From assembly GCF_003018235.1 (NCBI RefSeq), contig NZ_CP027437.1: 64,000 bases of DNA; one strand, given 5' to 3'. This DNA is from Escherichia coli (GTDB lineage Bacteria; Pseudomonadota; Gammaproteobacteria; Enterobacterales; Enterobacteriaceae). Made by a program: the position numbers. Positions 18,001-39,000 of this stretch are shown here, piece after piece; the first letter of the stretch is position 1; the number at the start of each line of letters is the position of its first letter.

Positions 18001-21000
18001 GTTCGTAAAGGGATTGTGGTTAACGTCGCTGAGATGCGTCTTTATTACTACCCACCAGACAGTAATACTGTGGAAGTCTTTCCTATTGGTATCGGCCAGG
18101 CTGGGCGAGAAACCCCGCGTAACTGGGTGACTACCGTTGAACGTAAACAAGAAGCACCAACCTGGACGCCAACGCCGAACACCCGGCGCGAATATGCGAA
18201 ACGAGGGGAGAGTTTGCCTGCATTTGTTCCTGCGGGGCCCGATAATCCCATGGGGCTGTACGCGATTTATATTGGCAGGCTATATGCCATCCACGGTACC
18301 AATGCCAATTTTGGTATTGGGCTCCGGGTAAGTCAGGGCTGTATTCGTCTGCGCAATGACGATATCAAATATCTGTTTGATAATGTTCCTGTAGGTACTC
18401 GTGTACAAATTATTGATCAGCCAGTGAAATACACAACGGAACCGGATGGATCAAAGTGGCTGGAAGTTCATGAGCCGCTGTCGCGCAATCGTGCAGAATA
18501 TGAGTCTGACCGAAAAGTGCCATTGCCGGTAACCCCATCTTTGCGGGCGTTTATCAACGGGCAAGAAGTTGATGTAAATCGCGCAAATGCTGCGTTGCAA
18601 CGTCGATCGGGAATGCCTGTGCAAATTAGTTCTGGTTCAAGACAGATGTTTTAAGAGCGTTGGTAATTAGAAAGCAAAAAGCCTGCTAAAAAGCAGGCTT
18701 TTTTGAATTTGGCTCCTCTGACTGGACTCGAACCAGTGACATACGGATTAACAGTCCGCCGTTCTACCGACTGAACTACAGAGGAATCGTGTGAACGGGG
18801 CGCATATTAATGGCAGTGCATGGTGATGTCAAAGGGTGAAATGCATTTTTTTGTTTGTTTGCTGTCTATTTCAACAAAGCGGTGAGATTTCAATCTTATT
18901 GGTAATGAACCATCGTGGTGCATACCCTCCTTTTATAGGGCAGGGGAACGCGACAGCTGATAAAAAGAGCCAATGACGAACCTATCATAATCTCTTATTT
19001 GACAGTTGCTTAGCTTGTACATCAACGCCAAAATAAAACTGGCAAGCATCTTGCAATCTGGTTGTAAGTAATGGCGGCACTTGGGCCGATTCTTAAAAAC
19101 CGGAGGCAACATGAACTTCAGACGCCTGAAATACTTCGTAAAAATTGTAGATATTGGTAGCCTGACCCAGGCTGCTGAAGTATTGCATATCGCACAACCA
19201 GCGCTCAGTCAGCAGGTTGCCACACTGGAAGGTGAGTTAAATCAACAACTTTTGATTCGCACAAAACGGGGCGTTACGCCAACTGACGCCGGAAAAATTC
19301 TCTATACCCATGCGCGGGCCATTTTACGTCAGTGTGAGCAGGCCCAACTGGCGGTGCATAACGTTGGTCAGGCATTATCGGGGCAAGTCTCGATTGGCTT
19401 TGCGCCAGGAACCGCTGCGTCATCCATCACCATGCCCTTATTACAGGCGGTTCGCGCTGAATTCCCTGAGGTCGTTATCTATCTTCATGAAAATAGCGGT
19501 GCAGTACTTAACGAAAAACTGATAAATCATCAACTCGATATGGCGGTGATTTATGAGCATTCCCCTGTGGCTGGTGTATCCAGTCAGGCTTTACTGAAAG
19601 AAGATCTTTTTCTGGTAGGAACTCAAGATTGCCCGGGGCAAAGCGTTGATGTTAATGCTATTGCGCAAATGAACCTCTTTCTCCCCAGTGATTACAGTGC
19701 TATTAGACTTCGTGTTGATGAGGCTTTTTCCCTACGGCGACTCACGGCAAAAGTCATTGGTGAAATTGAGTCTATTGCCACGCTTACCGCAGCGATTGCC
19801 AGCGGCATGGGCGTTGCAGTATTACCCGAATCGGCCGCGCGTTCGTTATGTGGCGCAGTAAATGGGTGGATGTCACGCATTACCACTCCTTCCATGAGTC
19901 TCTCTTTGTCATTAAATTTACCCGCCAGAGCGAACTTATCACCACAGGCACAGGCAGTGAAAGAGTTGTTAATGTCAGTGATGAGTTCTCCAGTGATGGA
20001 AAAAAGGCAGTGGCAATTGGTGAGCTAAGCGTTATATCGGGATGGAATAAGATGCGGGTTTTTATTATTTGTTATGCCGGGCATTAGACTTTAACAATAA
20101 CGGGATATCTGAACTGCCCGGAGTTTACCGTGAATTTCCAACAACTAAAGATAATCCGCGAGGCTGCACGTCAGGATTACAACCTGACAGAGGTTGCGAA
20201 TATGCTTTTCACCTCACAGTCCGGCGTCAGCCGTCATATTCGGGAACTGGAGGATGAACTTGGCATCGAAATATTTGTTCGACGAGGTAAGCGACTGCTG
20301 GGCATGACTGAACCGGGCAAAGCATTACTGGTCATTGCAGAACGCATTCTTAATGAAGCCAGTAATGTTCGTCGGCTTGCAGACCTGTTTACCAACGATA
20401 CGTCTGGCGTTCTCACTATTGCAACGACGCATACTCAGGCACGTTATAGCTTGCCTGAGGTCATTAAAGCTTTTCGCGAACTTTTCCCGGAGGTTCGGCT
20501 GGAGCTAATCCAGGGTACGCCACAGGAAATTGCGACGTTGTTGCAAAATGGCGAAGCTGATATTGGTATCGCCAGCGAGCGTTTGAGTAATGACCCGCAG
20601 CTCGTCGCCTTCCCGTGGTTTCGTTGGCACCATAGTTTGCTTGTTCCACTCGATCATCCCTTGACGCAAATTACACCGTTGACGCTGGAATCAATAGTGA
20701 AGTGGCCGTTAATCACTTACCGACAGGGGATTACGGGGCGCTCACGTATTGATGACGCATTTGCCCGCAAAGGTTTGCTGGCAGATATTGTATTAAGTGC
20801 GCAGGATTCTGATGTCATTAAAACCTATGTTGCTCTTGGGCTGGGGATTGGATTAGTTGCCGAACAATCCAGCGGCGAACAAGAGGAAGAGAATTTAATC
20901 CGTCTGGATACGCGGCATCTTTTCGATGCCAATACTGTATGGTTGGGACTGAAGCGAGGGCAACTTCAACGTAACTATGTCTGGCGCTTTCTGGAACTTT

Positions 21001-36000: not shown

Positions 36001-39000
36001 AACAGGGCCACTTCATCGCCATAATACTGTTCATAGACCAGTTTACCGCCAAGGTGCGGCCAGGCGGGTAACCAGCCTTCTGCGCGTACATCCCAGCCAT
36101 TGGCCGGGCGTGCTTCATAATCGTTGTCCAGTTCAGGTGCGCTGCGCCAGTTGGTCAGTCGCAAATAGCCGTTACTGCTTAATTTTAGATAGTCGCGCCA
36201 GTACTCCGCGCCAATGCCGGCACGGGAGTGGTAACGGCTAAGGTCGTGGTCGAAAAAGAAGTTGATGCCCGACATCCATGTGGGAGTGAAATGACGCCAA
36301 CCCAAGCCGTTGTTAATTTGCGTACGCTCGTCAGTACGATGGAGAGTATGCTGACTGAAAAAGAGATTATCAGGCGTTTCATACCACGGGTGGAGAAAAT
36401 CGAACTGGGAGTTCTTCAGGCTAAAATCTTCATCCACGCCCAGCGTGATTCTTGCGGTACCGAAGCGGCTTAACCAGTCTGTCATTACCCCTGAAGCCTG
36501 AGAAGAGGCCCATCCACGCGCCATGTTTGCCGCTTGCTCGCTGTTCATATCTTCGGCGAGCAAAGACCCGATTTGCTGTGAAGTACTGGCTATCTGTTGC
36601 TCGAGGTTGTCACTGCTATTACCCGGCGGCGGGGTTAATTTTTTTTCACTAACTTGTGCCGGGACATCCAGTTCATCACCCTGGCGGACATTATCAAAAC
36701 CTCGAGCAAACGTACGAAATTGGTTGAGTTTGCGTAACTCAGCCACCGAAATACCGAAACGTTCGGCAACGCTTTGGGCCGATTCCAGCGCTCCAAGGAT
36801 GTAGGGCACCGTATTGGTATTTGCACTGGCGATTTGTGCAGGAACTGGTTGTGGGGTTGCGGCGTTTACCACACCTTGTGCTGCCGCAGCCATAGGGAAC
36901 GCAAGTTGAGTTACCAGGCAGATACCCGCAGTTAAGCGGCGTAGTTTAATACCCATCCCGCATAAGATTTGTCGGTCATTTATTTCTTCTCCACTTCTCT
37001 TCTTCGTAGCCATGCTTACCTTCCCTGAACGAGCTAACATAAATGCGCCCTTTCTAGCACAGCGAAAAAAAGTAAATCCTGATAGCAATATGATTGAAAA
37101 TTAATAACTTTTCGTTAAGCAGTTTTGGGTGTGAGTTGCAAGGGGGGAGACTACTGAATTACTCAAGTTTTATAATCGAGGGGAAAATGGTGATGGCGTC
37201 CATAGCAAAACGCCCTCAACCATTAAGGTCGAGGGCGCTTAAGATGTCAAAAACCCGCTATCCGTTAAAAAGCAATGCTCAACTAAGGTCAGTGACATTG
37301 GGCTAAAAAAGCGAATTTTTAGAATTTGGCTCCTCTGACTGGACTCGAACCAGTGACATACGGATTAACAGTCCGCCGTTCTACCGACTGAACTACAGAG
37401 GAATCGTGTGAACGGGGCGCATATTACTTAGCGGTACCTTGTCTGTCAACACTAAATTTCATAAGTCATTTCAATTGGTTAATTAATCTACAAGGTTGTT
37501 AATTAATGAACATTCGTCGTCGAAAACGAGTCTGTATCATTAGCGTGGTGCAGTCTCTGCAAAGGATCTTGTTGATAAAATTGGCAGAAACGTTGCCACA
37601 ATGAAGGGAAACGAGGAGCAAAAAGTTCTGGGGCGCTAAAGAAATATTCAGAAAGTACGGCAAAACATTCAGCAGGATCACTGGCAGCATAAGCATCAAT
37701 GCTCGCCGCATTCTCGCCAACCAATTCGATTTCTTCCTGAATGTTGTTCATTGCAGCATGAAGATCGTGTTCCCAGCCAGCAACCTCACGCAACGGAATA
37801 AAGGGAACTCCGCTGGCGCGATCGCCGTTACGGGTGTCCAGCTTATGAGCGACTTCATGAATAATCAGGTTAAAACCAGAAGCATCAAAAGAATCTTGTA
37901 TATCCAACCAGTTCAAAACGATAGGCCCTTGCTGCCAGCTCTGACCTGACTGAACAATACGTTGGTTATGCACCAGACCGATATCGTCTTCCCATTCATC
38001 ATCGACCACAAATGGCGCAGGATAAATTAAGACTTCATGAAAACCATCCAGCCATTCCAGTCCTAACTCCAGAACGGGCAGGCAAAATAGAAGTGCTATC
38101 CGGCAGCTTCTTAATGAATCCAGTTCAAAGCCCTGTAAAGGAACAAGCCGCTTTTGCTGTAAAAAACGTTCGGCAAGAGTGACTAATTTGCTTTGTTCCT
38201 GTTCCGTCAGACACGTTAAAAGGGGGATCGATAGTGCTTCCTGCCAGGGAAGGGCAGTTTGATGTGCTGATTCTTGTACTTTCCAGGGCCACTTAATCAT
38301 CGTTTTGCTCGCAAACTCGTCACTTGAACAAAATTGCACGGACAGGGACTGTTAAAATGCCAAATTTCCTGGCATCATGGCAACCATCTGAACGGAGAGA
38401 TGCCGGAGCGGCTGAACGGACCGGTCTCGAAAACCGGAGTGGGGGCAACTCCACCGGGGGTTCAAATCCCCCTCTCTCCGCCAAAATTCAATCACTTACA
38501 CATCATTAAGTCAGTGACAAAAATCACACTTGGAATTACTTGGAATATTTTCTTGGAATATTTTCAGGTAACGGGACATCAAGTGTTGGTGAAACTTTAA
38601 CCTTCCTGTCATAGATTAGCACTTGCCCTTCGGTTTTGTGACCAGAGAAAAGTTGCTTATCCCGGCTGCTTCCTTCATAGTCTGAAATTCCTTTCGCCTT
38701 CAGATCATGAAAGGTGAAGTCGGTTAAAATACCTGAAATTTTTCCAGCACGATTTCTTGCTTCTACCCACATTTCGTTAAAGCCTTTGTACATATATCGG
38801 TTGCCGTATTGATTGCTGATTACATAGGCGGATGTTGGTAACTGTTTTGCTTTTTCGATCGCCGCCTGTAATCGTGGACTCCATGCTTTTATCTGTTTTT
38901 TCCCTGTTTTCCCTTGCTGGATAAAGATCCCGTCGTTTCCAATCTGTTCCCATTTCAGCGATAACACATCGGAAACCCTCGCTGCACACAGATAGGCAAT

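Follow-up and report, generated by a model that had tools for sequence, protein, structure and literature searches.

The 64-kb stretch of Escherichia coli DNA analysed here (contig NZ_CP027437.1 of assembly GCF_003018235.1), hereafter the window, carries four tRNA-Asn genes, asnV, asnU, asnW and asnT. We identify them with high confidence as the standard four-gene tRNA-Asn(GUU) cluster of E. coli, in the majority K-12-like orientation and with no island at any copy. The window represents the 44-min region of the chromosome in its ancestral, island-free state, with the high-pathogenicity island (HPI) and the pks island absent from their usual sites; the asn locus is the main hotspot for these yersiniabactin and colibactin islands.

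Of the six tRNA genes that ARAGORN detects in the window, four are tRNA-Asn(GTT), and Rfam RF00005 matches the same four at 72.6 bits each. One distinct 76-nt string covers all four, as stated in a first-pass annotation of this DNA, and the same string stands at all four asn positions of K-12. The genes lie within 18.7 kb, and asnW is the only copy in the opposite orientation. The annotation had also reported at least 25 bp of identical sequence adjoining asnV and asnT. The 25-mer AATCGTGTGAACGGGGCGCATATTA is indeed present exactly at 18785–18809 (asnV) and 37402–37426 (asnT), and with 3 mismatches at 22918–22942 (asnW), against an expectation of 0 matches in shuffles. Because the 25-mer begins with the 5'-terminal base of the tRNA itself, the flank that the two genes truly have in common is 24 nt. 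The exact repeats are 105 bp in direct orientation for asnV/asnT, 86 bp inverted for asnV/asnW and asnW/asnT, and 82–83 bp for the pairs with asnU; a repeat search of the window returns asnV/asnT as a 125-nt repeat at 95% identity. Thus, the description of these repeats as long, identical, inverted and direct is right as to orientation and overstated as to length, 82–105 bp being modest.

The region matches 5,425 of 5,426 complete E. coli genomes. Positions 15021–38498 of the window are collinear with K-12 MG1655 in reverse orientation (BLAST alignment, 96.8–97.6% identity), the sole structural difference being an indel inside yeeJ. The names of the asn genes were given by synteny with annotated K-12 MG1655, and the order mtfA-asnT-yeeJ ... 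yeeN-asnW-yeeO-asnU-cbl-nac-asnV-ldtA was found by K-12 annotation, BLAST and Pfam. The ten open reading frames (ORFs) from ldtA to mtfA carry the Pfam domains YkuD, LysR (two ORFs), MatE, YebC, AMP nucleosidase, MFS, GT9, an inverse autotransporter with 16 Big_1 repeats, and Peptidase_M90.

On their 3' sides, asnV, asnU, asnW and asnT pass directly into their native neighbours, ldtA, cbl, yeeN and yeeJ, respectively, through the same native sequences as in K-12. Within the window, no copy of the 17-bp attachment (att) core CCAGTCAGAGGAGCCAA was found outside the four asn genes at up to 2 mismatches. The Pfam scan of the ten ldtA–mtfA ORFs revealed no integrase or other mobility gene and none of the genes ybt/irp/fyuA or clbA-S; elsewhere the window holds pdu, cob and prophage genes. 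In occupied strains, the integrase lies about 160 bp from the tRNA, and at no copy in the window does a tyrosine (P4-type) integrase adjoin the tRNA 3' end. Taken together, the native flanks, the four att cores, the absence of integrase, ybt and clb genes and the collinearity with K-12 support the first-pass claim that the sites are unoccupied.

We compared 1 kb centred on each tRNA with the 5,426 complete genomes and counted a junction as intact where one BLAST place covered at least 80% of the query. The asnU junction was intact in 5,177 genomes (95%), asnW in 4,980 (92%), asnV in 4,664 (86%) and asnT in 2,667 (49%). Most breaks in the altered junctions coincide with the tRNA 3' end or lie no more than about 12 nt from it. 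The HPI is integrated at asnT in EC0880B, an integrase/Rhs-type island lies at asnW in W13-16 and at asnV in HKUOPY1, and the pks island adjoins an asnW-type copy in JCM 5491. Islands were met at all four copies in other strains, in agreement with the earlier designation of the asn tRNAs as integration sites for the HPI and pks.

In E. coli ET625 (locus L009, 5585–7084), the yersiniabactin HPI and its integrase are located at asnU, not at the usual asnT. In E. coli ES5 (locus L006, 1–7127), a carbohydrate block with phosphotransferase system (PTS) and hexulose-phosphate genes is found about 50 bp past the 3' end of the asnV tRNA; it begins after the native asnV terminator, has no adjoining integrase and represents an insertion or replacement of another kind.

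The flank shared by asnV and asnT sits 5' of the tRNA and comprises the −10 hexamer TAATAT, a GC-rich discriminator and a short leader. According to the promoter scan, every asn copy has a perfect −35 hexamer TTGACA, a spacer of 16–17 nt and the hexamer TAATAT (TAAGAT in asnU), with 10 of 12 matches each. The −10 hexamer is followed by a GC-rich stretch (GCGCCCC, TCGCCTC or GTGCCTC) and then by approximately 10 nt up to the mature tRNA 5' end. A GC-rich discriminator after a consensus −35 and an A/T-rich −10 is a feature of stringently controlled stable-RNA promoters. The identity between asnV and asnT ends at the upstream edge of the −10 hexamer, and their −35/−10 spacers are unrelated; when the four paralogs are aligned, the upstream columns that never vary are precisely the −35 and −10 hexamers, GCC.C and the bases immediately preceding the tRNA. 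Judged by its sequence, each asn gene looks like an independent monocistronic unit.

The conservation of this element beyond E. coli was analysed by scanning one genome per species (100,044 species) for the pattern TTGACA-N16-18-TAANAT-NNGCCNC-N8-12-tRNA-Asn, in which the leader was left free. At least 120 loci from many Enterobacterales genera match it, and among the matches listed are Citrobacter, Enterobacter, Klebsiella, Kosakonia, Lelliottia, Pantoea, Erwinia, Mixta, Hafnia, Cedecea, Dickeya and other genera. In these listed matches, the leader is TTCACACGAT in 88 of 154 copies, and the exact 24-mer of the window is found in 30 copies from many genera. The main class among them (116 copies) has leader positions conserved at 80–99% versus 30–50% in the spacer, that is, an invariant −10, discriminator and leader with a free spacer, while the 38 listed copies of the second class are asnU-like (GGTTTGACAAAAGTTTTTTCGCCGCTAAGATAAGCCTCCACAACGAT), with the spacer conserved too; upstream sequences of the asnU type are found again in Citrobacter, Enterobacter, Lelliottia and Kosakonia among the listed matches. 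Since the 24-nt element is conserved across genera, strong purifying selection would explain the identity of the asnV and asnT flanks, and on this evidence, the shared flank is a predicted functional promoter/leader element rather than a product of recombination.

A competing explanation, which we consider possible but doubtful, is that in this strain the flank identity results mainly from recent gene conversion (concerted evolution) and not from selection acting copy by copy. Over 125 nt, asnV and asnT agree at 95%, and their similarity does not end with the tRNA: 20 of 30 nt match in the 3' flank, a region without conservation between genera in the listed matches. Two of the three leader polymorphisms in other strains show the state of another paralog, for which random substitution gives about 1 in 24. 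Compared with window positions 37403–37426, the asnT leader is like that of asnW in having TAATATT in K-12 (locus L012, 3550) and GTTCTCACGAT in EC0880B (locus L011, 7005). These variants hint at short gene-conversion tracts between copies, in a small sample of only about a dozen loci. However, the unchanged 24-mer in distant genera means that selection alone suffices for the identity, and as the asnV and asnT spacers are unrelated (34 of 60 nt overall), a conversion tract would need to stop exactly at the −10 hexamer.

The near-invariant part of the leader in the listed Enterobacterales matches amounts to 10–11 nt, (G)TTCACACGAT, the conserved leader also being written GTTCACACGAT. It is rather unlikely that this conservation reflects either a specific undescribed function, such as RNase P processing, start-site selection or a regulator determinant, or short-tract gene conversion reaching the leader.

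Purifying selection on a promoter and leader remains our preferred reading of the flank; for the DNA between the tRNA copies, another origin was considered. An inter-tRNA segment, for example, yeeN–yeeJ or nac-cbl-yeeO, could be an old island, now degraded, that duplicated the tRNA gene when it integrated. The segments are indeed bounded by tRNA copies, the GC content drops to 0.37–0.44 around 23–25 kb and 27–29 kb, and yeeJ is length-variable and often disrupted between strains. Nevertheless, neither integrase nor other mobility genes were found in the segments, the repeats at their borders are complete genes, each with a conserved promoter of its own, and not partial tRNA repeats, and the K-12-like junctions are present in most of the 5,426 genomes at asnV, asnU and asnW and in approximately half at asnT. 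In addition, multiple promoter-bearing asn copies, including the asnU type, occur in other genera among the listed matches and thus point to an old duplication, so that we regard an ancient island as very improbable. The base composition was rejected as evidence of foreign DNA in these segments, the dips being mild and mobility genes absent. An origin of the shared flank as a scar or att remnant of an excised island, suggested by the fact that asn tRNAs are known island sites occupied at all four copies in other strains, is hardly conceivable and was rejected, because islands insert at the 3' end, whereas the shared flank lies 5' of the tRNA, includes both the −10 and the discriminator and is conserved in other genera, and the window has no additional att-core copy.

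Rearrangements between copies were sought in the 5,426 genomes with chimeric junction queries in which the tRNA is preceded by the promoter flank of one copy and followed by the 3' flank of a different copy. The 4.3-kb asnV × asnW inversion (junction nac-asn-yeeN) was found in 265 genomes, including Nissle 1917 and M1/5; this pks-associated inversion is thus present in about 5% of complete E. coli genomes. The asnU × asnW inversion, in which yeeO alone is flipped (junction yeeO-asn-yeeN), occurs in 34 genomes and was verified in LD27-1 (locus L014, 3637–5536), where no island is nearby. The asnV–asnU deletion (junction ldtA-asn-yeeO) was seen in 35 genomes, first in CUVET16-465 (locus L004, 8461–10360); these strains lack two nitrogen/sulfur LysR regulators, nac and cbl. 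Neither the 14-kb asnW × asnT inversion (junction yeeO-asn-yeeJ) nor the asnV–asnT deletion (junction mtfA-asn-ldtA), which involves the most similar pair, was detected in any of the 5,426 genomes. The two zero counts act as controls, indicating that the chimeric queries do not reach 80% coverage spuriously, and no tested junction involving asnT was found in these genomes. The first-pass proposal that the repeats are substrates for rearrangement therefore holds in general, with no junction found for the highlighted asnV/asnT pair. The comparison with relatives suggested there reveals inversions and islands at the asn sites of other genomes, but this window is collinear with K-12, in the majority, non-inverted orientation.

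In pks-positive strains, as seen in JCM 5491 (loci L005 and L008), the island lies between ldtA and a tRNA bearing the asnW promoter, because the asnV–asnW segment is inverted; this matches the published descriptions (PMC8209727, PMC8461471).

It should be noted that several points weigh against the interpretation given here. The absence of islands refers to the window; other parts of this genome could harbour the HPI or pks, and locations outside tRNA genes are reported for some A/B1 strains. The fractions of junctions that are not intact, about half of complete E. coli genomes at asnT, mix islands, insertion sequence (IS) insertions and rearrangements. The promoter and terminator calls are predictions from consensus matches, and asnT has no convincing terminator directly downstream, where a weak hairpin (z = −1.7) is found. 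Finally, Asn pre-tRNA leaders are reported to be 6–8 nt long (PMC7049720); such a leader puts the start 11–13 nt after TAATAT, further than usual, and the exact start is therefore uncertain.

We infer asn promoter activity, stringent control, RNase P processing and the mechanism of recombination as follows. Each asn gene would be a unit of its own, driven by a sigma-70 promoter close to consensus, with a GC-rich discriminator like those of stable-RNA genes; RNase P would remove the short 5' leader, and the unit would end in a downstream hairpin, strong in asnV, asnU and asnW and weak in asnT. The 24 nt common to asnV and asnT, and nearly so to asnW, would be kept alike by purifying selection, to which gene conversion may add. 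The identical tRNA 3' end would serve as the attachment site for P4-type integrases of the HPI, pks and other islands, hence the islands carried there by other strains, and the identity over 82–105 bp may permit inversions and deletions via homologous or integrase-mediated recombination.

Table 1. Coordinates of the tRNA genes, predicted regulatory elements and neighbouring genes in the window
Feature	Position	Strand	Evidence and remarks
asnV, tRNA-Asn(GTT), 76 nt	18710..18785	-	ARAGORN; Rfam 72.6 bits; ldtA/nac interval as in K-12
asnU, tRNA-Asn(GTT), 76 nt	21118..21193	-	ARAGORN; Rfam 72.6 bits; cbl/yeeO interval as in K-12
asnW, tRNA-Asn(GTT), 76 nt	22942..23017	+	ARAGORN; Rfam 72.6 bits; yeeO/yeeN interval as in K-12
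asnT, tRNA-Asn(GTT), 76 nt	37327..37402	-	ARAGORN; Rfam 72.6 bits; yeeJ/mtfA interval as in K-12
asnV predicted promoter and leader	18786..18832	-	−35 TTGACA 18832–18827, 17-nt spacer, −10 TAATAT 18809–18804; scan 10/12
asnV discriminator GCGCCCCG, leader ..CACACGAT	within 18786..18832	-	24 nt identical to asnT
asnU predicted promoter and leader: TTGACA, 16 nt, TAAGAT, GTGCCTCAACAGCAAT	21194..21237	-	promoter scan
asnW predicted promoter and leader: TTGACA, 17 nt, TAATAT, TCGCCTCGTTCTCACGAT	22895..22941	+	promoter scan; 3 mismatches to the asnV/asnT 25-mer
asnT predicted promoter and leader: TTGACA, 17 nt, TAATAT, GCGCCCCGTTCACACGAT	37403..37449	-	promoter scan; 24 nt identical to asnV
asnV predicted intrinsic terminator, hairpin and T run	18676..18703	-	terminator scan; −18 kcal/mol, z = −4.7
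asnU predicted terminator hairpin, then T run	21081..21111	-	−20.4 kcal/mol, z = −5.5
predicted hairpins 3' of asnW (23025–23054 and 23078–23108), then T run	23025..23108	+	−33 kcal/mol, z = −6.8
nac and cbl (LysR-family regulators), between asnV and asnU	19081..21080	+	Pfam HTH_1 and LysR_substrate; annotation of homologous loci
yeeO (MATE exporter), between asnU and asnW	21195..22841	+	Pfam MatE
native asnW–asnT segment: yeeN, amn, shiA, yeeL-like GT9 gene (+ strand), yeeJ	23472..37088	-	Pfam; K-12 collinearity
serU, tRNA-Ser(CGA), 3' side occupied by prophage	38394..38483	+	ARAGORN

Among the neighbouring genes, yeeJ (29031–37088) is intact and encodes 2,685 aa with 16 Big_1 repeats; its indel relative to K-12 is located at 32922–33804, with a 300-nt repeat at 32680/33289. 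The yeeL homologue of the GT9 family (27654–28769) is also intact in the window. To the left of the asn cluster lie cobUST, a cobalamin riboswitch, pocR/pduF and the pdu operon. In comparison with strain 2021CK-01784, pduC is broken by a 1,431-bp IS3-family element (9048–10478) with ORFs at 9907–10437 and 9080–9802 (− strand) and a target duplication of about 5 bp, and the operon has probably lost its function.

The medically relevant element in the window is the Stx2j prophage at serU and not the asn genes. In K-12 and EC0880B, serU is followed by yodB/zinT; here, it is followed by a prophage integrase (38536–39561, − strand), and a lambdoid prophage extends from serU to the end of the window (64000). 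This prophage shares 99.9% identity with the Stx2j prophage carried by E. coli O158:H23 CFIAFB20140388, whereas the chromosomal backbone of that strain differs from the window in having no pdu operon and a yeeJ disrupted with extra insertions. The stxA2j gene is at 55452–56402 (NCBIfam NF041689, 744 bits vs. a cutoff of 720), stxB is at 56422–56685, and the prophage RNAs include DicF, C4/isrK, sok and STnc100. Just upstream of stxA, in the region 55210–55348, there is a tRNA called Met/CAT by ARAGORN and Ile in the annotation of a related prophage, and a second weak tRNA-like Rfam match (31.4 bits) is found at 55288–55348.

The cluster, the islands and the asnV × asnW inversion are already known or published. 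According to Auvray et al. (PMC8209727), pks resides at asnW, asnV or asnU, while the HPI is fixed at asnT, and inversion of the 4,309-bp asnW-asnU-asnV region accompanies pks; the same inversion, of yeeO-tRNA-cbl-gltC, is given in Wami et al. (PMC8461471), and asnW/asnV inversion was found within UTI89 cultures (PMC6458436). Neither the yeeO-only inversion nor the nac-cbl deletion came up in the literature consulted, no search having been aimed at either; both are minor variants of the same theme.

Compared with the sigma-70 promoters of stable RNA (rRNA and tRNA), the putative asn promoters have the same consensus −35, 16–17-nt spacer, A/T-rich −10 and GCGCC(C/T)C stretch, but a longer than usual distance from the −10 to the start of the published 6–8-nt leader (PMC7049720).

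The K-12 MG1655 locus (b1977, b1984, b1986 and b1989; 2.044–2.062 Mb) has the same four identical tRNA-Asn(GUU) genes, all four sites empty, and the same neighbours, mtfA, yeeJ, yeeL, shiA, amn, yeeN, yeeO, cbl, nac and ldtA, in the same order and relative orientation. The two differ in that the identity is about 97%, yeeJ of the window is about 0.9–1 kb longer, yeeL is a pseudogene in K-12 and intact in the window, and the K-12 asnT leader has one change (TAATATT); moreover, serU of the window carries a prophage, and the pdu operon lies beyond cobUST where K-12 has CP4-44.

In contrast to the HPI- and pks-bearing loci of extraintestinal pathogenic E. coli (PMC8209727, PMC8461471), the window lacks both islands, a P4-type integrase and a direct repeat, and its orientation is non-inverted. 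The att sites, located at the 3' ends of the identical tRNA-Asn genes, are common to the window and these loci, as is the 4.3-kb asnV–asnW segment that is prone to inversion.

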